This document shows, in pieces, positions 2,352 to 32,007 of a stretch of DNA of 33,378 nt. Both the position numbers and the translations under genes were made by a program. The notes beneath the pieces are model-generated. The model did not search any database and was not told where the DNA came from. It saw only the letters and a program-made list of their open reading frames with translations. The DNA lies in sequence record PQ657771.1; one strand, 5' to 3'. Origin of the DNA: Escherichia phage EC.P3. Each line of letters starts with the position of its first letter. Position 1 is the first letter of the stretch.

Positions 2352-2412
2352 AGCCCAGCCCCGTTCGCAGACAATTGTTAATATCTGCATAACGGCTCTG
2401 GGCTATTTTTTT
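2352..2412 (+). terminator. long-range stem-loop plus U-tract between repressor and NYN gene (possible attenuator)
   Basis: AGCCCAG (2352..2358) pairs with CTGGGCT (2398..2404), enclosing an inner GCAGA/TCTGC hairpin, followed by ATTTTTTT. Confidence 0.4.
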
Positions 2413-2421
2413 GGGACTCTT

Positions 2422-3279
2422 ATGAAGAAAGCAGCAATTTTAATTGATGCGGGTTTTTTCATGCAGCGTGTTCATGCTACGCATCGTAAACACTTCGCCG
2501 AGCATGAACTGACTGCGCAATGCATAATGAAAGTAATATGGTCAATGGTTCTTTCCCATCTTAATGGAAAACGTCAATCACAAGAACGTAGGGAACCGCT
2601 TGAGCTTTATAGAATTTACTTCTATGACTGTCCACCACTCGACATTCAAACACGCCTTCCACTTCCTGAGCCTGGCAATAAGACGCCTGGTCGCAAGAAT
2701 TTCAAACTCGAAAAATCATATATTCTGAGAACGGAGCTGCATGAAGAGTTAAGAAAAACTCGAAAAACAGCCTTAAGATTAGGGAATCTTGTTGATAATA
2801 AGCGATGGCAACTAACTACATTCTCCCTTGATGCTCTGATGAAAGGAACGAAAAAATGGGATGAACTGACAAATGATGATTTTTACTATGACATCAAACA
2901 AAAACAAGTTGATATCAAGCTAGGGATGGATATCACGACTTTAGCTTATGAAAAACTTGTTGATGTAATTGTCCTTGTTGCTGGGGACTCAGACTTTGTG
3001 CCTGCCGCCAAACACGCCAGAATTAAAGGTATTGATTTTATTCTTGATCCACTAAGACAGAATGTTACCCCATCACTGTCAGAGCACATTGATGGAGTTC
3101 AGTCATACAGCTTGATATCAGGACTTGCCGATGCTTTACATGTTGAGCCAGACCCGGCACCTGACTGGTGGGAAGATCGAAAAAAAGGCAAGCCTAGAGG
3201 AAAAAACAATAGCGGTAAACGCAGGTATGGAAACACTCAAGCTGAGTCTGCAAAGAAACATCAAAGAAATAAACGATAA
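2422..3279 (+). CDS. NYN-domain (PIN-like) putative nuclease with Lys/Arg-rich C-terminal tail
   Basis: N-terminal AILIDAGFF and later VLVAGDSDFVPAAKHARIKGIDF are NYN/LabA hallmarks with conserved acidic residues; C-terminus KKGKPRGKNNSGKRRYGNTQAESAKKHQRNKR; in the cI-to-N interval. Confidence 0.75.
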   Translation: MKKAAILIDAGFFMQRVHATHRKHFAEHELTAQCIMKVIWSMVLSHLNGKRQSQERREPLELYRIYFYDCPPLDIQTRLPLPEPGNKTPGRKNFKLEKSYILRTELHEELRKTRKTALRLGNLVDNKRWQLTTFSLDALMKGTKKWDELTNDDFYYDIKQKQVDIKLGMDITTLAYEKLVDVIVLVAGDSDFVPAAKHARIKGIDFILDPLRQNVTPSLSEHIDGVQSYSLISGLADALHVEPDPAPDWWEDRKKGKPRGKNNSGKRRYGNTQAESAKKHQRNKR

Positions 3280-3288
3280 TCCCATCAA

Positions 3289-3314
3289 CCCGGCCACCGA
3301 GCCGGGTTTTCTTT
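3289..3314 (+). terminator. rho-independent terminator after NYN gene
   Basis: CCCGGC-CACCGA-GCCGGG followed by TTTTCTTT, 10 nt after the stop. Confidence 0.7.
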
Positions 3315-3447
3315 GCCTCACGCCCCCACCTAAAGCACGCAATTCTGATCTCTCCTTACATCGCCGAGGCGATACACCCACGCTAAAAAACAACACTATT
3401 AAATACAAAGCGTTATAAAAAATCACCCCATTTTAGAACAAATTGTA

Positions 3448-3476
3448 TTGACCCAATAAAGTACATATCGTACTAT
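3448..3476 (+). promoter_or_regulatory. pL-like promoter overlapping operator-like inverted repeat
   Basis: TTGACC, 17-nt spacer, TACTAT; inverted repeat AGTAC-ATATC-GTACT overlaps the -10. Confidence 0.5.
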
Positions 3477-3522
3477 TTAACCGTCAGCAGGACGCTGTAA
3501 GCCAAACGGAGCAGACTGGCAG

Positions 3523-3568
3523 GCTCTTTAAACAACGTCGAACACTCGACTACGTGGCTGAAAAGCCA
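3523..3568 (+). promoter_or_regulatory. nutL (boxA 3523..3535, boxB 3555..3568)
   Basis: GCTCTTTAAACAA (boxA-like) then TGGCT-GAAA-AGCCA hairpin with GNRA-type loop, about 100 nt upstream of N. Confidence 0.65.
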
Positions 3569-3666
3569 GATCACCCAACCATATAAGCTGTGGGATGCAA
3601 TGCCGAAGCAACCGTCTCAGGAGGAGCTTCGAGATTGCATCGCCAAAGTTTATTCGGGAGGAATCT

Positions 3667-3939
3667 ATGTCCAGAAAAACAGAATTTAAAGGCACCGCAG
3701 CTTCTCGCCGTAGAGCTCGTCGTGCAAACCTGCAAAGTCAGGAGGCGATCAGCTCTGACAAGCTACACAGGCCAACCCCTTCACGAGTGGTCTTACAATG
3801 CAAACGCAAACCAGTAATGAGAGCAGAAGTAATAACACTGACAACGTTGACCAGAAAATATGAAGGCTCAACTTGTCTTCCAAATGTAGCCATTTACGCG
3901 GCAGGCTACAGGAAATCCAAACAGCTGACAGCAAGATGA
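3667..3939 (+). CDS. N: N-type transcription antiterminator
   Basis: Start at ATG 3667 after GGGAGGA; arginine-rich motif TAASRRRARRANLQ; C-terminus LPNVAIYAAGYRKSKQLTAR matches the P22 gp24 C-terminus as recalled. Confidence 0.85.
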   Translation: MSRKTEFKGTAASRRRARRANLQSQEAISSDKLHRPTPSRVVLQCKRKPVMRAEVITLTTLTRKYEGSTCLPNVAIYAAGYRKSKQLTAR

Positions 3940-4033
3940 CTTGTGTTGGTCGCCAGAAAATGAAATTAGGCAGCAAACCACTTATTTGGGATGTGGGGGC
4001 CTTTTTATATCAATCAAACAGAAGGAGCATCCT

Positions 4034-4204
4034 ATGCAACAGTTCGCTATTGCAGGGGCGGCATCGGTTCGCCCTTTCAACCCGATTTTATCGGTACAGC
4101 ATTCACGAAAAAATATTTTAACCGGAGCAGACTTTAAACAACCAAGAATGAAAAGTTTGCTCGAAAAGCTTTGGGATATTTTGAAACAACAAGGCCGTCC
4201 ATGA
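4034..4204 (+). CDS. hypothetical small early protein
   Basis: ATG 4034 with AGGAG 6 nt upstream; 56 aa; first gene after N. Confidence 0.4.
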   Translation: MQQFAIAGAASVRPFNPILSVQHSRKNILTGADFKQPRMKSLLEKLWDILKQQGRP

Positions 4205-4285
4205 GTTTTACGGATAACTGGTCAGACGAAGAATTCATTCGTCAGATGAACAAAATGCTCAATCAGCACAAAGAACAGGAGAAAG

Positions 4286-4597
4286 ATGATGATTCTGACT
4301 CTGAATGATAAGCGTGAAATATCGCAAATAATCGCAAGTTTTACTGATGAAGATTACGAACGAATCAACAGTGAAGTTGATCGCCTCTGCAAACGTTGCG
4401 ACCCAATAAGCGAAATGCTTCGCTCATATAAACCAGATGAACACACTAAGGACGCTATCGACTGGCTGGAAGATGATGACTGTAACTATCAGGAAAAAGC
4501 CGCTGAATGGTTCTGGGATGCAATAACCGAAAGAGTTAAGGCTGAATATGCCTTCGCAATATTCAAGCGCAGACACATTTTTGGAGAAGCAGCATGA
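4286..4597 (+). CDS. hypothetical acidic protein
   Basis: GGAG-type RBS; stop overlaps recT start (ATGA). Confidence 0.5.
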   Translation: MMILTLNDKREISQIIASFTDEDYERINSEVDRLCKRCDPISEMLRSYKPDEHTKDAIDWLEDDDCNYQEKAAEWFWDAITERVKAEYAFAIFKRRHIFGEAA

Positions 4598-5496
4598 GCA
4601 ATATCGTTGAATTCGTTAAACAGCAGGAGCAGTTATTCTGCGGAGCATTGACTGAACAGACGGTGACATGGGCTAAGGAAAGCCAGTTTGCAATTCAGTA
4701 TTTCCAGAAAAACGATTACCTGGCTAAAACGGCACTGGCAAATCCAACCAGCGCACAGAACGCCATCATCAATGTTGCGGCGATCGGCATCACCTTAAAC
4801 CCGGCCAGCAAACTTGCTTATCTAGTTCCGCGCGACGGCATGGTTTGCCTTGATATCAGCTATATGGGATTACTTCATCTTGCGCAATCGACAGGCTCAA
4901 TTAAGTGGGGGCAATGCAAACTGGTGTACTCAAACGACACCTATGAATCAAATGGCCTTGATTCAGCACCAACTCACAAATACAACGCATTTGGAGAGCG
5001 AGGCTCTATTGTTGGTGGTTATTGCACGGTAAAAACAGCAGATGGTGACTACCTGACTGAAGAAATGAGTCTGGCAGAAATTAAAGCAGTGGAAGCAACG
5101 AGCAAGGCAAAGAATGGACCGTGGAAAACATTCTGGGAAGAGATGGCGCGTAAAACAATAGTTAAACGCGCCAGCAAATACTGGCCTAAAGCCCAGCGAC
5201 TGGATAATGCCATTCACCTGCTTAACGAAGATGAAGGTATGCATCAGGAACCAGTTATGCCGCACAAATCAGAGGAAGATATCCGCGAAGATGAACGGAA
5301 ACTCCAGCAGGAAATAATGGATAAAGCACAACTTCTTTGCGATGAAATGGCTCAGGCAGAAAACATGGATGATTTGAAGCGATATTTTGCAGAAGCATAT
5401 CGCCTGACATCTGGAATGAAATTGCAGCAGAACGTACAAGCCATTTACATAGAATGCAAAGCGAAACTGGAGGTTGCCAGTGAGCAAACTGTATGA
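4594..5496 (+). CDS. recT: RecT-family single-strand annealing recombinase
   Basis: 300-aa translation with RecT-like core (NGPWKTFWEEMARKTIVKRASKYWPK). Confidence 0.85.
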   Translation: MSNIVEFVKQQEQLFCGALTEQTVTWAKESQFAIQYFQKNDYLAKTALANPTSAQNAIINVAAIGITLNPASKLAYLVPRDGMVCLDISYMGLLHLAQSTGSIKWGQCKLVYSNDTYESNGLDSAPTHKYNAFGERGSIVGGYCTVKTADGDYLTEEMSLAEIKAVEATSKAKNGPWKTFWEEMARKTIVKRASKYWPKAQRLDNAIHLLNEDEGMHQEPVMPHKSEEDIREDERKLQQEIMDKAQLLCDEMAQAENMDDLKRYFAEAYRLTSGMKLQQNVQAIYIECKAKLEVASEQTV

Positions 5497-5962
5497 AATA
5501 GCCAATGAATACGCAAAGCTGATGGATTCAGATTTAGAGCCAGAGATGATTGCTGACACAATAGAAGGCATGGAAGGAGAATTTACCGATAAAATAGAGC
5601 AACTTCTTGCCATTATTAAAAATGAATCTGGTTATGCTGAACGCCTCAAGGACGAGGCAAAGTCGCTGAATGAGCGAGCCGCAGTAATTCAAAATAAGAT
5701 TGACAGCATCAAATCATATATAGCGTCATCGCTTGAAATGGTTGGCAAGAAAAATATTCGAGCAGGTATTCACCAGGTAACAATCCGCAAACCGTCAGAA
5801 ATTGTAGAAATCATCGACTCAAGCGCCATTCCTCCTGAATACGTTGAGTTTGAAACGACAATTAAAGCCGACAAACTGGCAATCAAACACCAACTAAAAG
5901 CAGGAATAAATATCCCCGGCGCTCAACTCAAAGTTGGGAAACCTTCACTTCTTATCAAATAA
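5474..5962 (+). CDS. Gp157-like protein
   Basis: 162-aa coiled-coil protein directly after and overlapping recT, the usual position of Sipho_Gp157-family genes; family assignment from memory. Confidence 0.5.
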   Translation: MPVSKLYEIANEYAKLMDSDLEPEMIADTIEGMEGEFTDKIEQLLAIIKNESGYAERLKDEAKSLNERAAVIQNKIDSIKSYIASSLEMVGKKNIRAGIHQVTIRKPSEIVEIIDSSAIPPEYVEFETTIKADKLAIKHQLKAGINIPGAQLKVGKPSLLIK

Positions 5963-5973
5963 CGGTATCGACT

Positions 5974-6204
5974 ATGAAAAAGACTCCATGGGAGAAATGG
6001 GAAGTCGATTTCTTGCGCGAAGTAGCGGCGACAATGCCAGTTGAAGTTATCGCTGAAAAACTGGAAAGGACTGAAAAAGCAGTAATGGCGAAAGCAACAA
6101 GGATTGGCGCTGACATTGTTAGCCGACTTCGTGGAAGACGCTGGACAAGAGCCGAAGTATCACTTTTCGGTAAGTTCTCCGCAGAAGAAAGTGAACAAGA
6201 TTGA
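5974..6204 (+). CDS. hypothetical protein
   Basis: 76-aa ORF with plausible RBS; no recognised family. Confidence 0.4.
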   Translation: MKKTPWEKWEVDFLREVAATMPVEVIAEKLERTEKAVMAKATRIGADIVSRLRGRRWTRAEVSLFGKFSAEESEQD

Positions 6205-6598
6205 CTATCAGGCACTGCGTGAAAAGGCAGAGAAAGCCGGTGAAGATAAGTGGCAGGCTAAAAAAATAAATGGTGATTTTTTCGTTATTCGTCACGGTAG
6301 CTATACAAGACAGCATGGCTACACATCGTATCAACCCATTGCGGAGATTGATTGTAAGCCAGTCCGGGATTTTGTTGCCAAGGCTAATCCGGCTACCGTG
6401 CTGGAATTACTGGATGAACTGGAAGCAGCAAAAAAGCGCATTGCAGTATGGCTATTGCCGCAAGTTACACCATGCATCTCTACTGTGATTGTCGCCAGTG
6501 TACAAATGGTAAATATCAAACGCCAGACTTCGGTGAATATATCGGTACGTCATGGGCTGGCTGTGCAAAAGAGGCGCGCAAGGATGGCTGGCGAATAA
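6191..6598 (+). CDS. Ead/Ea22-like protein
   Basis: GTG start assumed at 6191; motif NPATVLELLDELEAAKKRIA typical of Ead/Ea22-like proteins; 3' part overlaps ORF 6448..6657 in another frame. Confidence 0.5.
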   Translation: MNKIDYQALREKAEKAGEDKWQAKKINGDFFVIRHGSYTRQHGYTSYQPIAEIDCKPVRDFVAKANPATVLELLDELEAAKKRIAVWLLPQVTPCISTVIVASVQMVNIKRQTSVNISVRHGLAVQKRRARMAGE

Positions 6599-6657
6599 GC
6601 AAAGACAAAACGCGTGCTTTTGCGCCCGGGCATAAAGTTTTGAGGATTAACAAATGA
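6448..6657 (+). CDS. small Cys-rich protein; may be frameshifted C-terminus of the Ea22-like gene
   Basis: MHLYCDCRQCTNGKYQ; overlaps previous ORF by about 150 nt; stop overlaps next start (ATGA). Confidence 0.35.
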   Translation: MAIAASYTMHLYCDCRQCTNGKYQTPDFGEYIGTSWAGCAKEARKDGWRISKDKTRAFAPGHKVLRINK

Positions 6658-7115
6658 CCACTATTACCAAAGAGCGACTGCTGACAATCAAGCAGTGGCG
6701 CGAAACATACGGACCTGGTAGCAACGTTGTACTGCCAGCAGAAGAAGCGGAAGAACTGGCACGAATTGCTCTGGAATCGCTGGAAGCAGAGGCAGTTATG
6801 TTCTGTATATCAGGACAAAATGTAGATTCAGAAGAACATGTATCAACCAGCAAAGCGGTTGTTGATGCCTGGGTTGAAGAATGGAATCAGGTTGACGGAA
6901 GTCCTGGCGAACCACTGTACAAAACTATGCCACTCTACTATCACGCTGCCTTGCCAGCGCCGGTAGTGCCGGAAGAAGCAACTCCGGAAAACGTAGAAAT
7001 GCTCTCTGGCTATGTTTCCACGTACAAATTAACCGATAGCGAGCGCGATATTGCTGCCGAAATATGGAACGCCTGCCGCGCCGCCATGCTAAACAAGGAG
7101 GAGAACAATGGATAA
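6654..7115 (+). CDS. hypothetical acidic protein
   Basis: 153 aa; translationally coupled at both ends. Confidence 0.5.
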   Translation: MTTITKERLLTIKQWRETYGPGSNVVLPAEEAEELARIALESLEAEAVMFCISGQNVDSEEHVSTSKAVVDAWVEEWNQVDGSPGEPLYKTMPLYYHAALPAPVVPEEATPENVEMLSGYVSTYKLTDSERDIAAEIWNACRAAMLNKEENNG

Positions 7116-7806
7116 TCGATATGAAATAGCAGAACAAAATGGCATGAGCCTAGAGTTCGCTGACTGGTTCTTTGATAACAAAAAAGATGGCTGTGGAAAC
7201 GCTTGGTTCGTGATGATGGCTGCCATGTGGGAAGGCTGGAAAGGCCGGGCAGAACCGCCATTTCCGGAAATACAGGCTGATGTCGCGCAAGCAATTGAAA
7301 ATCTCAAGCAGAAGTTAGTGGAATGCAATCGCTATAACTACTGCGCAGATGCAGTAAAGGGCGTAGAGGATGCCTGCCACGCTGCCATGCTTCAGGGTAG
7401 CCAACCTGTAAGCCAAACTTACAAGTTGCCAGTTAATACACCTTGCCAAGATGCGCCAGCCCATATCTGGCTGCAAACAGCTGGAGTATGGCCAGAAGAT
7501 GGCGAGTTAAGCGAATTAACGTGGTGCAGCCACAATCAGCACCATGATGACACGCTATATGTTCGAGCTGACTTGGTAAATGGCAATTCTCCGGTAACTC
7601 CGGATGGCTGGATAAGCTGTAGTGAGCGAATGCCGGAGAAATACGATTTCGATATCTGGGTATTCTCTCCATCCAGAGGCGTTATTGACGGGCTACAGTG
7701 GGATGGCTCGATGTTTACTGATGATGAATATCAGTTCGTTATTCATGACGCCACGCATTGGATGAGAAAAGCATATCCAGCAGAACCGCAGCAGGATGGT
7801 GAATGA
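7108..7806 (+). CDS. DUF551-like domain protein
   Basis: C-terminal WISCSERMPEKYDFDIWVF resembles DUF551, common in enterobacterial prophage early regions. Confidence 0.55.
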   Translation: MDNRYEIAEQNGMSLEFADWFFDNKKDGCGNAWFVMMAAMWEGWKGRAEPPFPEIQADVAQAIENLKQKLVECNRYNYCADAVKGVEDACHAAMLQGSQPVSQTYKLPVNTPCQDAPAHIWLQTAGVWPEDGELSELTWCSHNQHHDDTLYVRADLVNGNSPVTPDGWISCSERMPEKYDFDIWVFSPSRGVIDGLQWDGSMFTDDEYQFVIHDATHWMRKAYPAEPQQDGE

Positions 7807-7932
7807 TGCCGCCAGTTAAAGTTGTGATTATCACTTTGGTGATGATAGTGATTGCGAGAATCATGTCTGGTGAAGTTTGGTGGATATGGTAATGGCTAAG
7901 GCAGCAGCAGAGCGCAACATTGGAGACAAGAA

Positions 7933-8277
7933 ATGTCAGATTTGGCTATGAAGGTTTTGAAATGGCAATCAACTGGCGATGTCGGCATCAGTAGCGCAAC
8001 TCTTGCCTCAATCGCGTGTGGACTGAAAAAGAATATCTATGGTCATCACTTCGGCGCTCCACATGACGCAGCCGATTTCCGGCGATGCGTTGCACTTGTT
8101 GAGCAGATTCCAGAAATCAGAGATTCATTCGACAAGGTTGCAAAGCGCGTTCCGGCATTCAAAGGAATCCTCAACGAATGGGATTCACTCGTTGCTCTGT
8201 TGAAGTCTGAAATGAAGACGTACGGGAACAAAGCACCAGAGACTTACAGAAGAATCAGCGAGCTACGCAAGGACTAA
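7933..8277 (+). CDS. hypothetical protein
   Basis: 114-aa ORF, last gene of the plus-strand early operon; followed by hairpins. Confidence 0.5.
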   Translation: MSDLAMKVLKWQSTGDVGISSATLASIACGLKKNIYGHHFGAPHDAADFRRCVALVEQIPEIRDSFDKVAKRVPAFKGILNEWDSLVALLKSEMKTYGNKAPETYRRISELRKD

Positions 8278-8280
8278 CCC

Positions 8281-8341
8281 GCCTCACACTCGATGAGGCC
8301 TGTTCATATCTGATAGAGCCGCTGTATGGCGGTTTATTTTT
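8281..8341 (+). terminator. tandem hairpins ending the early operon
   Basis: GCCTCA-CACTCGA-TGAGGC (8281..8299), then AGCCGC-TGTATG-GCGGTT followed by TATTTTTG. Confidence 0.55.
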
Positions 8342-12455: not shown

Positions 12456-13334
12456 TCAGTAGTTATGTACTGAAGGAGGTAATTCTTTATTCTTAAGTCT
12501 CATCCATGCGGAAAGATTCGTTGGTCCGTCTGGCTCATTGATATCAACATCTCGTGTGTGATTGATTAAAACGTCTCTCGCCATATCGATAATACGGGAG
12601 AACTCATAACCGCAGTCATGACATCTGCCGGAATAGTTCGATTGAATTTGTTTTAGCGCCGGATACAGTTCGCGGAATAATGCCTGTGAGCGGTTGGCAT
12701 AATCCCATAACCATACAAGGCTGTTTGCTTCTTTTGCAGAAAGCTCGTTGGTTTTCTTCTCTTGTTTGCCGATGAATTCACCTTCAAGCACTACCCTGTG
12801 GATGTACTCTACGGCTTGCGGGATTTGTTCAATTGAAAGTTCATCAATGCTGTCAATACCAAAACGCTGATGAACCATATTGTATGCATCGTCATAGCGA
12901 AGTCCTTTCTTTCCTACCAGCATGTTTACTGCATCGCGTAGCGGTGTTCTTTCCTCAACAGTGGTTTTCTTTCCTTTTACATACTCGCCATGTTTGCGAA
13001 TTGAAGGCAGAACTTCTGCTGTTACCCACTTGCGGAATTTGTGCGGGACTGAACCTTTATTGACTGCATCGCGGCAGCGCAGAACCAATGTATACATACC
13101 TGATTCGCTCACAATGCTTAGATTCTGCTCACCACCAAGGGTGTAACTTAAAGTTACTCCCTTTTCATCGTCATCAAGTGCAGTAAGCGCCTTGCGTGAG
13201 TTAGTCAGGGTTAAAGCATCACAAACATCTTTTGCTACAAACCACGGCTCACCGCACTTGTTGATGACGCGGATTTCACTGTCGCCGAATTTGAAGATGG
13301 TGAAATCGTTTTGTGCCTTTGCTATACTTTTCAT
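12456..13334 (-). CDS. ant: antirepressor (BRO-N domain)
   Basis: [33 protein letters not shown] is a BRO-N signature; downstream of arc as in P22 immI; start set to ATG 13334 (AGGAAAT upstream), alternative TTG at 13400. Confidence 0.7.
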
Positions 13335-13396
13335 GTCAATATTTCCTAATCCGATTTGTTGATGCCGAAGCCCTGACTGTTCCCGCAGTTGGGGCT

Positions 13397-13666
13397 TCAA
13401 CGTTTTTCCACTTCATTTTGAATTTGCTTAAGTAGCATATTTGTCTCGTCAAGCCTCTTGTTAATACGGTCAAGGCTTTCTACTAAATCGTTATGTGCAT
13501 GTGATACTTCGTAATTTGAGACTGATTTCTTTTCCTCTATCGTCTTTGTCAATCGTTCCCCTGATTGATACATATTGATTAACGATGTAAAAATCACGAG
13601 CAAGCAAACTACAATGATTGCGCCAGACAAAAATTGTAAAGAACGATCAAGCAATGACACCTTCAT
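13397..13666 (-). CDS. small membrane-anchored coiled-coil protein
   Basis: One N-terminal hydrophobic helix ([19 protein letters not shown]) then heptad-like charged segment; coupled to the arc stop; lies between arc and ant. Confidence 0.5.
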
Positions 13667-13815
13667 ACCGCCACCCCCTCTCTCTTCAGGCTGTCTATCA
13701 GGCGCTTGATAACCTCTGAGTTAAACGACCTGCACTCTTCCTTTGCCTTGCTACCGATAGCATCCTTTAACGACTGCGGCATCCTTACCAAAATCTTACT
13801 TATTTCTTTCTCCAT
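13663..13815 (-). CDS. arc: Arc-like ribbon-helix-helix repressor
   Basis: Start at ATG 13815 with GGAGGG 5 nt upstream; MEKEISKILVRMPQSLKDAIGSKAKEECRSFNSEVIKRLIDSLKREG matches the Arc fold and RS.NSE motif. Confidence 0.75.
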   Translation of the reverse strand: MEKEISKILVRMPQSLKDAIGSKAKEECRSFNSEVIKRLIDSLKREGVAV

Positions 13816-13929
13816 GTTACCCTCCACACAAACAACTCTTTTCGAATACAAAAGATAGCAAAGTGAGTATATCTAGTCAAAATTTTTTTGCATACACTTT
13901 GATATCAAATTGAATACCAAAGGTGTGAT
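13816..13929. promoter_or_regulatory. divergent Pant/Pmnt-like promoter-operator region
   Basis: 114-bp AT-rich spacer between divergent arc-like and mnt-like genes; inverted repeats CAAAGTG (13859..13865) and CACTTTG (13895..13901). Confidence 0.5.
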
Positions 13930-14178
13930 ATGGCAAAGGGTGTGTCAATTTCTCCAACTACGGTAAGAATCCCTGAATCTTTACGCGAGGCTCTTGCTGT
14001 CAGAGCATCAAAAAATGGTCGCTCTGTTAACTCCGAGATCGTCATGATTTTGCAAGCCGCGATTGATGAAGATAGGTCGCCAAAGTCAGTTGAGTCATTT
14101 GCTCAGCAAGAAGCTGACAAATTCAAAGAGGCGCTGCTTGAGACGCTAAAGACCATGTATGGTAAGGATGAAAAATAA
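13930..14178 (+). CDS. mnt: Mnt-like ribbon-helix-helix repressor
   Basis: 82 aa; RIPESLREALAVRASKNGRSVNSEIVMILQAAI and C-terminal KFKEALLETLKTMYGK parallel P22 Mnt, including the tetramerisation tail. Confidence 0.8.
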   Translation: MAKGVSISPTTVRIPESLREALAVRASKNGRSVNSEIVMILQAAIDEDRSPKSVESFAQQEADKFKEALLETLKTMYGKDEK

Positions 14179-31422: not shown

Positions 31423-31446
31423 AAAAAAGCCCCGCGAATGCGAGGC
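31423..31446 (-). terminator. rho-independent terminator downstream of Rz region
   Basis: Minus-strand GCCTCGC-ATTC-GCGGGGC (one G-U pair) then TTTTTT. Confidence 0.6.
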
Positions 31447-31620
31447 TAAATCCTGGTGTTTTTGATGACTGGCTCTTATCTCAACGCAGCCCCTTACCGC
31501 GCGCCAGATGCTCAATATCAAGCATCAGCAATGAGATGTTTAATCTGGATTCACTCCAGAAGTGATCATCACCCTGTCTACAGAGCCAGATGTGAAGGAT
31601 GATGAGTAAAATTATCGCTA

Positions 31621-32007
31621 TCATCGAAGGCATTGCGTCCTGATGTACTCCTGCAGGTAGTTAACCTGCGCGGTTATCCTGTCGATTCCACTTCGGAGAC
31701 GGTAATAATTGAGTTCAGCATCTGCTGTAAGTCTTGGGCTTTCTCCATCGCCCATGCTGCTGGCTCCGGTCGTTGACTTTGCACAGATGGCGGCGACTTG
31801 CAGGCGCTTACGACCAGCAGAAACATCAGCACGGAGACTTTCGATAGTCGCGTTAGCATCAGCAAGCTCCTTTGTGTATCTGGCGTCAAGTTCTGCTACA
31901 TCACGTTGACGCTTCTGCATGTCAGCGATTGTGGATGTGGCCTTATCGCGCTGCTCTTTATAGGCGATTGTGGCGACCGGTGCTGATCTCCGGTTTGCTG
32001 CAACTGC
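31621..32007 (-). pseudogene. Rz: Rz (i-spanin) remnant lacking in-frame N-terminal membrane anchor
   Basis: Frame reads AVAANRRSAPVATIAYKEQRDK...MQKRQRDVAELDARYTKELADA...QCLR, homologous to the lambda Rz periplasmic domain; in-frame TAG at 32008..32010 and no start before Met 31920; a Rz-anchor-like stretch SALIVVV sits in another frame. Confidence 0.5.
31674..31859 (-). CDS. Rz1: Rz1-like o-spanin lipoprotein embedded in Rz frame +1
   Basis: MLTRLSKVSVLMFLLVVSAC with lipobox LVVSAC then Pro-rich segment; embedded as in lambda. Confidence 0.6.
   Translation of the reverse strand: MLTRLSKVSVLMFLLVVSACKSPPSVQSQRPEPAAWAMEKAQDLQQMLNSIITVSEVESTG

Follow-up and report, generated by a model that had tools for sequence, protein, structure and literature searches.

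Three probable small genes joined to their upstream neighbours by stop/start overlaps in a P22-like Escherichia phage, including a candidate family of membrane micro-proteins

Small membrane peptides, among them type I toxins such as Hok, Ibs and TisB and regulatory micro-proteins such as MgtS and AcrZ, are some 20-50 amino acids long, contain a single hydrophobic helix and are missing from standard annotation. In phage P22, c3 is followed by kil, arf and erf, and these genes overlap one another. The arf product is reported to aid recombination but not to be essential, and its molecular function is unknown (PMC12315714). Here we consider three open reading frames (ORFs) of comparable size in Escherichia phage EC.P3 (sequence record PQ657771.1), whose whole analysed stretch of 33,378 nucleotides is called the window below. 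Overall, we think it probable, at roughly 70%, that all three are real small protein-coding genes, which P22-like and lambdoid phages carry as mosaic modules and each of which is joined to the gene upstream by a stop/start overlap:

4201..4308, plus strand: ORF1 (micro-ORF 1), acidic, 35 amino acids; ATGA overlap with cIII, PHROG matches and neighbour-anchored loci
7803..7892, plus strand: ORF2 (micro-ORF 2), hydrophobic, 29 codons from the first ATG, predicted single-pass membrane micro-protein; comparative conservation
31481..31633, minus strand: ORF3 (micro-ORF 3), 50 amino acids; phrog_11822, the Sf6 gene 65 family

A sequence-only reading of the window had described these as translationally coupled micro-ORFs of the early operon, and all three are present as noted, with small corrections. 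ORF1 is acidic and opens at an ATGA on the previous gene, a cIII homologue, but has 35 codons rather than 34. ORF2 does have 29 hydrophobic codons and an ATGA junction with a gene confirmed as DUF551-containing (PF04448), with the refinement that the conserved start is the second ATG, giving 28 residues. ORF3 has the expected 50 codons on the minus strand, a hydrophobic N-terminus, a basic tail and an overlap with the Rz stop, but it lies in the late lysis cassette; only ORF1 and ORF2 fall within the early-left (PL) operon (2400-8300). The view that all three sit below usual gene-calling thresholds holds for ORF2 alone, since ORF3 is routinely annotated (Sf6 gene 65, epsilon34 gp67, WP_001139676.1) and ORF1 is annotated in some records and present in PHROGs.

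The coupling signatures are there for all three, as ATGA, TGATG or TAATG overlaps that recur in other gene contexts. Ribosomes finishing the upstream gene could thus re-initiate on the micro-ORF, and re-initiation of this kind would couple each of them to its upstream neighbour; translational coupling as such is inferred solely from this conserved arrangement of the codons. The bare signature, however, is not above chance: ORFs of at least 25 codons number 86 in 6 kb, and we estimate that roughly 5-7% of TGA-terminated genes should by chance have an A before the stop and at least 28 open codons after it. It is the comparative evidence alone that lifts these ORFs above that background, and related sequences were therefore examined. 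The frames proved to be conserved in related phages, which was the check put forward with the sequence-only reading, in 159/160 loci for ORF1, 58/60 for ORF2 and 48/51 for ORF3.

ORF2 is the best supported and the newest of the three, undescribed as far as checked, and we regard it as very probably a real gene. Its sense codons occupy 7803..7889, with the stop extending to 7892, and the start reads ATGATG, so that the first ATG forms ATGA with the stop of the DUF551 gene and the second (7806) forms TGATG, a one-base overlap. Relatives conserve the second ATG, and hence a 28-residue product (MPPVKVVIITLVMIVIARIMSGEVWWIW). A protein search returned six mis-started gene calls containing MPPVKVVIITL...IW, on contigs that are prophage early regions beside integrase genes and, once, a nin region; a pattern scan then yielded 56 viral loci and one Pseudocitrobacter locus, the sole match in the scan of genome contigs. 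Exactly 28 codons, from ATG-CCN-CCN to [ILV]-W-stop, are found in all but two of the 60 related loci, with identity down to 46%, the exceptions being one lost last codon and one late frameshift; because the loci were retrieved by peptide pattern, which counts against our reading, conservation of the N-terminus is partly by construction. Two subfamilies can be distinguished, ...VIARxMSGExGxIW and ...AICQLISMTGYGIW, and R18 co-occurs with E23 (D23 in one locus) in the first, both being missing from the second. Selection acts at the level of the peptide: the proportions of synonymous (pS) and non-synonymous (pN) differences in frame are 0.58 and 0.235, a ratio of 0.40, against 1.07 and 1.32 in the other two frames, which also contain stops. 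Pairwise pN/pS against the window ranges from 0.17 to 0.46, with synonymous sites near saturation. The arrangement of the gene is equally constant: the upstream stop overlaps the ORF2 ATG by one base (TGATG or TAATG) in 49/57 loci, a downstream start overlaps the ORF2 stop in 43/57, and the median pairing of the Shine-Dalgarno (SD) sequence over the 57 loci is -7.8 kcal/mol, strong SD sequences being found in unrelated upstream contexts.

Among 5426 complete E. coli genomes, 222 (~4%) contain the ORF2 region, as do nine cultured-phage records (E212, the Stx2 phages 1717 and 2851, and relatives). No coding sequence is called at ORF2 in the phage records inspected, nor does the Prokaryotic Genome Annotation Pipeline (PGAP) call one in the listed E. 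coli genomes, where a single row (H152) has an uninspected 'hypothetical protein' under the match. ORF2 has no family match in PHROGs, Pfam, NCBIfam or PADLOC and no Rfam match nearby, and a tblastn search of cultured phages with the second subfamily returned nothing. The chances seem to us about even that these sequences constitute an undescribed family of 28-residue membrane micro-proteins, MPPVKVV[IV]IT...[ILV]W, distributed among the lambdoid and P22-like prophages that Enterobacteriaceae carry (~4% of complete E. coli genomes, some Stx2 phages, Pseudocitrobacter), invariably placed between stop/start overlaps behind modular 'ea'/DUF551 genes and overlooked by standard annotation. With a grand average of hydropathy of 1.58 and one hydrophobic span, the peptide is predicted to cross the inner membrane once, K5 on the cytoplasmic side, followed by the hydrophobic core and a Trp-rich C-terminus. 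It would be expressed from the early-left operon behind the modular 'ea'/DUF551 genes, and may modulate or perturb some function of the host membrane, either at an early stage of infection or following induction.

The surroundings of ORF2 merit a separate description, beginning with the gene upstream:

7108..7806, plus strand: DUF551-containing modular early ('ea'-type) gene, 232 amino acids (PF04448, E 1.6e-9); its last codons form the SD of ORF2

In the window (7770-7806) and in the upstream genes of loci L178-L229, otherwise unrelated 'ea'/DUF551 proteins share an end tail, ...PLPAAPQQEVK or ...PEPPEQDGE, and the codons of the conserved tail (...PAAPQQEVK) form the ORF2 SD across related loci. 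Because unrelated upstream proteins share this SD-encoding tail, the mosaic unit seems to reach into the upstream gene and to include its last ~10 codons. On the other side, an ATG on the ORF2 stop (TAATG) opens a 19-codon ORF (MAKAAAERN..., window 7889-7948) that has 9 codons in phage E212. It looks like the stump of a 113-residue gene (MAKSAAERKAAQRA...) that is intact in locus L219; a deletion at 7918/7919 in the window joins the 19-codon ORF to the leader of an ORF114 homologue. An antisense promoter-like site lies within ORF2 (7869-7842), and such sites number 6, compared with 8.3 expected by shuffling.

ORF1 comprises 35 sense codons (4201..4305; product MSFTDNWSDEEFIRQMNKMLNQHKEQEKDDDSDSE) and a stop at 4306..4308, with a net charge of -7 and a conserved N-terminal motif, NWSDEEFIRQM. 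Its ATG (4201-4203) shares two bases with the TGA (4202-4204) of the cIII homologue, and its last 23 nucleotides overlap the start of orf103, so that it is held between the following neighbours:

4034..4204, plus strand: cIII homologue, 56 amino acids (phrog_550 'CIII anti-termination', E 1e-22; annotated cIII in the HK140 and SPN9CC RefSeq records)
4286..4597, plus strand: orf103 (phrog_3486, E 3.7e-59), overlapping the recT start by ATGA
4594..5496, plus strand: RecT-family single-strand annealing protein (PF03837, E 3.1e-33)

The SD of ORF1 itself is weak (-3.0 kcal/mol), which fits a reliance on coupling; that of the cIII homologue is AAGGAG (-8.0 kcal/mol, calculated with the start placed at 4035, although the ATG begins one base earlier, at 4034). 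To avoid circularity, ORF1 loci were fetched from IMG/VR with only the neighbouring genes, cIII and orf103, as queries (80 loci each). The ORF opens at the ATGA on the cIII stop in 79/80 cIII-anchored loci, and the 35-residue form is intact in 80/80 orf103-anchored loci, where the ATGA junction is retained behind three unrelated upstream genes: a Kil-type gene in 45, cIII in 30 and a third type in 5. The cIII-anchored relatives have a common N-terminus, MSFTDNWSDEEFIRQM, followed by three C-terminal types, each tied to its downstream module. Type 1 (35-36 residues) precedes orf103 and RecT, as in the window; type 2 (52 or 56 residues, phrog_2123) and type 3 (60 residues, phrog_17766) both precede an overlapping phrog_1723 ORF and Erf. 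Among cultured phages, mosaic breakpoints coincide precisely with position 4201; the match to phage Kapi1, for example, begins there. At least 1000 contigs encode the identical ORF1 protein, and some records annotate it, as Kapi1_014 (phage Kapi1) or as the hypothetical protein ADA72650.1. It matches phrog_17766 (E 5.1e-16, profile positions 1-32 of 60) and phrog_2123 (E 3.5e-10, positions 1-20 of 52), both partially and at the N-terminus, and has no match in Pfam, NCBIfam or PADLOC. An RNA element at this position was also considered and is ruled out by a fold z-score of +0.3 (no stable structure) and the lack of an Rfam match.

The sole broken ORF1 copy among the 160 loci is in L146 (IMGVR_UViG_2545824708_000010), where an insertion (~1668-2850) follows codon 4 of the homologue and carries a 363-residue ORF, a putative insertion-sequence-type transposase. 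In Erf-type modules, the 52-60-residue relatives (phrog_2123/17766) overlap a second-frame ORF of 56-62 residues (phrog_1723) by ~80-95 nucleotides, as in L100 (319-568) and the SPN9CC-like L130 (1668-1944). Both phrog_1723 and phrog_2123 carry the label 'recombinase'; the SPN9CC RefSeq record annotates the phrog_1723 frame only, and the few substitutions seen in the overlap favour that frame. P22 Kil was considered as a relative of these overlapping phrog_1723 ORFs and proved unrelated.

ORF3 runs for 50 codons (31633..31484) with its stop extending to 31481, and overlaps the 3' end of Rz by 13 nucleotides at the end of what is left of the lysis cassette:

31621..31920, minus strand: Rz (i-spanin) remnant (PF03245, E 2.8e-34, model positions 26-125 only)
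31674..31859, minus strand: Rz1 (o-spanin), inside Rz in the +1 frame, read from sequence; lipobox LVVSAC; annotated Rz1 in Sf6, epsilon34 and Sf101
31428..31447, minus strand: terminator-like hairpin and T-run, 33 nucleotides past the ORF3 stop; 8 pairs, 6 of them GC

The Rz remnant lacks its N-terminal ~30 codons compared with phage E212, homology continuing up to about the BLAST breakpoint at 31968, and Rz1 has an SD of AAGGAG (-7.9 kcal/mol). ORF3 matches phrog_11822 over its full length (1-50 of 50, E 5.5e-38), and combines a hydrophobic N-terminal stretch of 15 residues (mean Kyte-Doolittle hydropathy 2.95) with a basic C-terminal tail. It is carried by 51 of 80 Rz-anchored loci, the other 29 having unrelated sequence from the Rz stop onward. 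An exhaustive phmmer search found distant homologues of 44-46 residues and 47-64% identity that directly follow holin/lysozyme/spanin cassettes with other spanin types (DUF2514), their starts overlapping or nearly abutting the upstream stops and terminase genes coming next. The alignment is gapless, with the motifs IWLCR, W, SxLML and ARxKGxR-stop, and the ORF3 frame is the only one open in all four divergent sequences (the window and three distant homologues); the N-terminus varies in sequence and keeps its hydrophobicity. Translation from another in-frame ATG, at 31624, where it forms ATGA with the Rz stop, would yield 47 residues, and since the distant homologues begin near residue 4-6, this coupled ATG is suggested as the conserved start. 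ORF3 has no match in Pfam, NCBIfam or PADLOC and none to a holin family among Pfam and NCBIfam, and a single-sequence AlphaFold2 model is one long helix with a predicted local distance difference test score of 79, which is uninformative. We judge ORF3 likely to be a real gene, though with somewhat less assurance than ORF2. Already annotated as a hypothetical gene of the lysis cassette, it would be a 47-50-residue protein of the Sf6 gp65 family that ends many such cassettes, with a predicted N-terminal hydrophobic helix and basic tail; the constancy of its position behind spanins of different types suggests, speculatively, a membrane-associated accessory or regulatory role in lysis.

At the same time, a number of observations weigh against reading all three as genes. 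We found no ribosome-profiling or proteomic support for any of them; literature searches with the peptide strings were empty, and the small-gene ribosome-profiling supplements for enterohaemorrhagic E. coli Sakai held no match. Among the close variants of ORF1 (24 DNA variants), 8 substitutions are synonymous and 22 non-synonymous, where 14% synonymous would be expected, so that dN/dS is ~0.45 and not clearly unlike neutral; divergence among the close variants of ORF1 and ORF3 is too small for dN/dS to tell frames apart. The fetched ORF1 relatives are also nearly identical in DNA, so that recent common ancestry accounts for part of their intactness. The last 7 codons of ORF1 are merely the overlap with orf103, and the Erf-linked forms have a tail that is seemingly unconstrained beside the overlapping phrog_1723 ORF. 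For ORF3, pN/pS is 0.69, equal to that of the +1 frame, and the three defective copies among the 51 comprise a nonsense mutation, a frameshift and a lost stop codon. Finally, the most conserved DNA of ORF3, even in the distant homologues, is its last codons (31484-31505) together with 12 nucleotides past the stop (31469-31480), a 3' block that can form a 5-bp hairpin (CGCGG/CUGCG).

One alternative is that some of these ORFs, and mainly ORF1, are translated only to pass ribosomes downstream or to cover the mRNA, the peptide itself having no function. For ORF1 this explanation draws on its weak SD, on overlaps at both ends that bridge the cIII stop to the orf103 start, on a dN/dS that is not significant and on C-terminal tails that vary freely among module types, which leaves a relay-only role some probability. 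However, orf103 has a good SD of its own (GGAG, -7.4 kcal/mol), so no relay is needed, and the SDEEFI core shows three synonymous substitution types against one non-synonymous (W7C, beside the motif) among the close type-A variants fetched, and is shared with the independently diverged Arf family. For ORF2, the strong selection at the amino-acid level excludes a relay altogether. Taken over the three, we consider this explanation improbable, if the strongest of the alternatives, and continue to favour small genes encoding functional peptides.

Less likely again, to the point of being doubtful, is that the ORFs are incidental frames in short spacers that seem conserved only through recently exchanged, near-identical DNA. 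ORFs of this size are indeed plentiful, for ORF1 and ORF3 the majority of the relatives fetched exceed 90% identity, and frame-specific selection is undetectable for either. Against this, the ORF2 peptide is conserved across saturated synonymous sites, ORF3 stays open and gapless in homologues of 47-64% identity from different lysis cassettes, and the ATGA of ORF1 is kept behind unrelated upstream genes with the frame open in all its C-terminal versions. The least likely of the alternatives, that ORF3 is the by-product of a signal conserved in the RNA or DNA where the lysis transcript ends (a small hairpin and the terminator region), would account for the strongest DNA conservation lying at GC(G/A)CGC(G/A)GTAAGGGGCTGCGTTGA and in the 12 nucleotides beyond the stop, for three stem substitutions that retain pairing (G-U to A-U or G-C), two of which alter an amino acid, and for a fold z-score of -1.85, but only those three stem changes are available, all of them transitions and hence of low power, the z-score stems mostly from the separate terminator hairpin, and conserved blocks also lie far upstream in ORF3 (IWLCR, W, SxLML), where the N-terminus stays hydrophobic.

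The genome that carries these candidate genes is itself unusual in its present form. The window represents Escherichia phage E212 (MZ043897; Lederbergvirus, P22-like) in completely circularly permuted form, with ~100% identity over aligned blocks, and its positions 1 and 33378 adjoin each other in E212. The early-left operon on the plus strand contains N, cIII, the recombination module with RecT, the 'ea'-type genes and an AlpA-like excisionase, and the minus strand carries the virion genes together with the nin region and what is left of the lysis cassette. Compared with E212 there are ~10 internal deletions, with breakpoints near 316, 746, 1275, 2290, 3338, 3988-4008, 6446, 7918, 12627-14158, 31968 and 32136, and with the loss of O, P, ninB, part of cI, Q, the holin, the endolysin and the first ~30 codons of Rz. 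Because O, P, Q, holin, endolysin and others are deleted, what is left of the genome, 33.4 kb, should by itself be unable to replicate, to activate late genes or to bring about lysis. None of the 8 deletion junctions checked is present in the ~400 related loci fetched, and the Q/lysis deletion junctions are present in 0/5,426 complete E. coli genomes. Conversely, a 1.5-kb segment (12628-14157) that is not in E212 carries a P22-type immI region, with a 314-residue ORF (12456..13400), an 89-residue ORF (13397..13666) and a clear Rfam match to the sar antisense RNA (13336-13402, plus strand; 64 bits, E 3e-11). A 285-residue ORF (2422-3279, plus strand), upstream of N and beside the cI remnant, has weak PADLOC matches to an NYN/LabA-like nuclease model (E 2e-4) and to the candidate defence model HEC-09 (E 1.4e-3), and may serve a prophage in defence or exclusion, in the slot that rex or sieB takes in other lambdoid phages.

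Taken together, the three ORFs represent ordinary phage biology and one modestly novel small-protein family, that of ORF2. Current understanding is unchanged; the gain is one of annotation and of three testable small-gene candidates. Small phage proteins are under-annotated, and ORF2 is a clean case, missing in the inspected records, including those of Stx2-converting phages of E. coli O157:H7, while ORF3 points to an uncharacterised component conserved at the end of the lysis cassette. Should ORF1 prove to be an Arf-type cofactor that accompanies RecT modules as well, it would be a candidate for the role of accessory factor in recombineering systems.

How closely each ORF resembles a described system differs widely among the three. 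ORF3 is the same gene as gene 65 of Shigella phage Sf6 (NP_958239), gp67 of Salmonella phage epsilon34 and ECs0822 of E. coli O157 Sp3 (PHROG 11822): these proteins have 50 residues, the DNA is ~97% identical and there is no important difference in the protein, and the PGAP entry WP_001139676.1 is ORF3 in an E212-like prophage of ETEC1747. The window, Sf6, epsilon34 and the ETEC1747 prophage have a common layout, in which ORF3 directly follows Rz/Rz1 with the 13-nucleotide overlap and is itself followed by a terminator, annotated in epsilon34, after gp67, as Rho-independent; the window differs from Sf6 and epsilon34 in that the upstream lysis genes (Q, holin, endolysin) are deleted. ORF2 resembles Hok, Ibs and TisB, as well as MgtS and AcrZ, in its size, its single hydrophobic helix and its absence from standard annotation. 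Unlike the type I toxins, however, it is embedded in an operon by stop/start overlap and lacks its own promoter, long leader and antisense RNA, and an identity as a type I toxin was ruled out on this gene organisation, given the overlap with the upstream stop in most loci and the lack of its own transcription unit.

ORF1 has its nearest relatives among the 52-60-residue proteins of PHROG 17766 and PHROG 2123, which follow cIII and are labelled as of unknown function and 'recombinase', respectively. Their first 16 residues are essentially identical to those of ORF1, in the 60-residue form the similarity continues as far as approximately residue 28, and an ATGA overlap with cIII is common to all. 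ORF1 is the short form, which ends 7 codons into the orf103 overlap without the C-terminal 20-30 residues of its sisters. The described system it recalls is P22 Arf (MQHEFSDEEFIAL...), an accessory factor of Erf. By profile search the likeness is faint, the hmmscan matches to the Arf PHROG (phrog_2445) having E-values of 0.062 for ORF1 and 0.037-0.042 for its longer relatives, which fall short of family thresholds and so count against the comparison; alignment of the two families with hhalign gives 75% probability (P 2.5e-5) over 21 columns. ORF1 has 35 residues and Arf 47, of which ~21 align. The partners differ too, RecT standing beside ORF1 and Erf beside arf, and orf103 separates ORF1 from recT, whereas arf directly abuts and overlaps erf. 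Catalogued in PHROGs but rarely annotated, ORF1 is plausibly Arf-like. If it is translated, we lean slightly towards a peptide that assists the single-strand annealing system in the manner of Arf and would open a recombination module of ORF1, orf103 and RecT with a conserved N-terminal helix motif resembling the N-terminus of Arf. A more tentative and novel reading is that ORF1 and its sister forms could be a swappable family of Arf-like cofactors, with C-termini that match the partner recombinase, RecT or Erf. Both ORF1 and Arf have an N-terminal [F/W]-x-D-E-E-F-I followed by an acidic helix; both are small, acidic products of the early-left operon, encoded between cIII/kil and a single-strand annealing gene with stop/start overlaps to their neighbours; and the sister forms of ORF1, like arf in P22, sit ahead of Erf modules.

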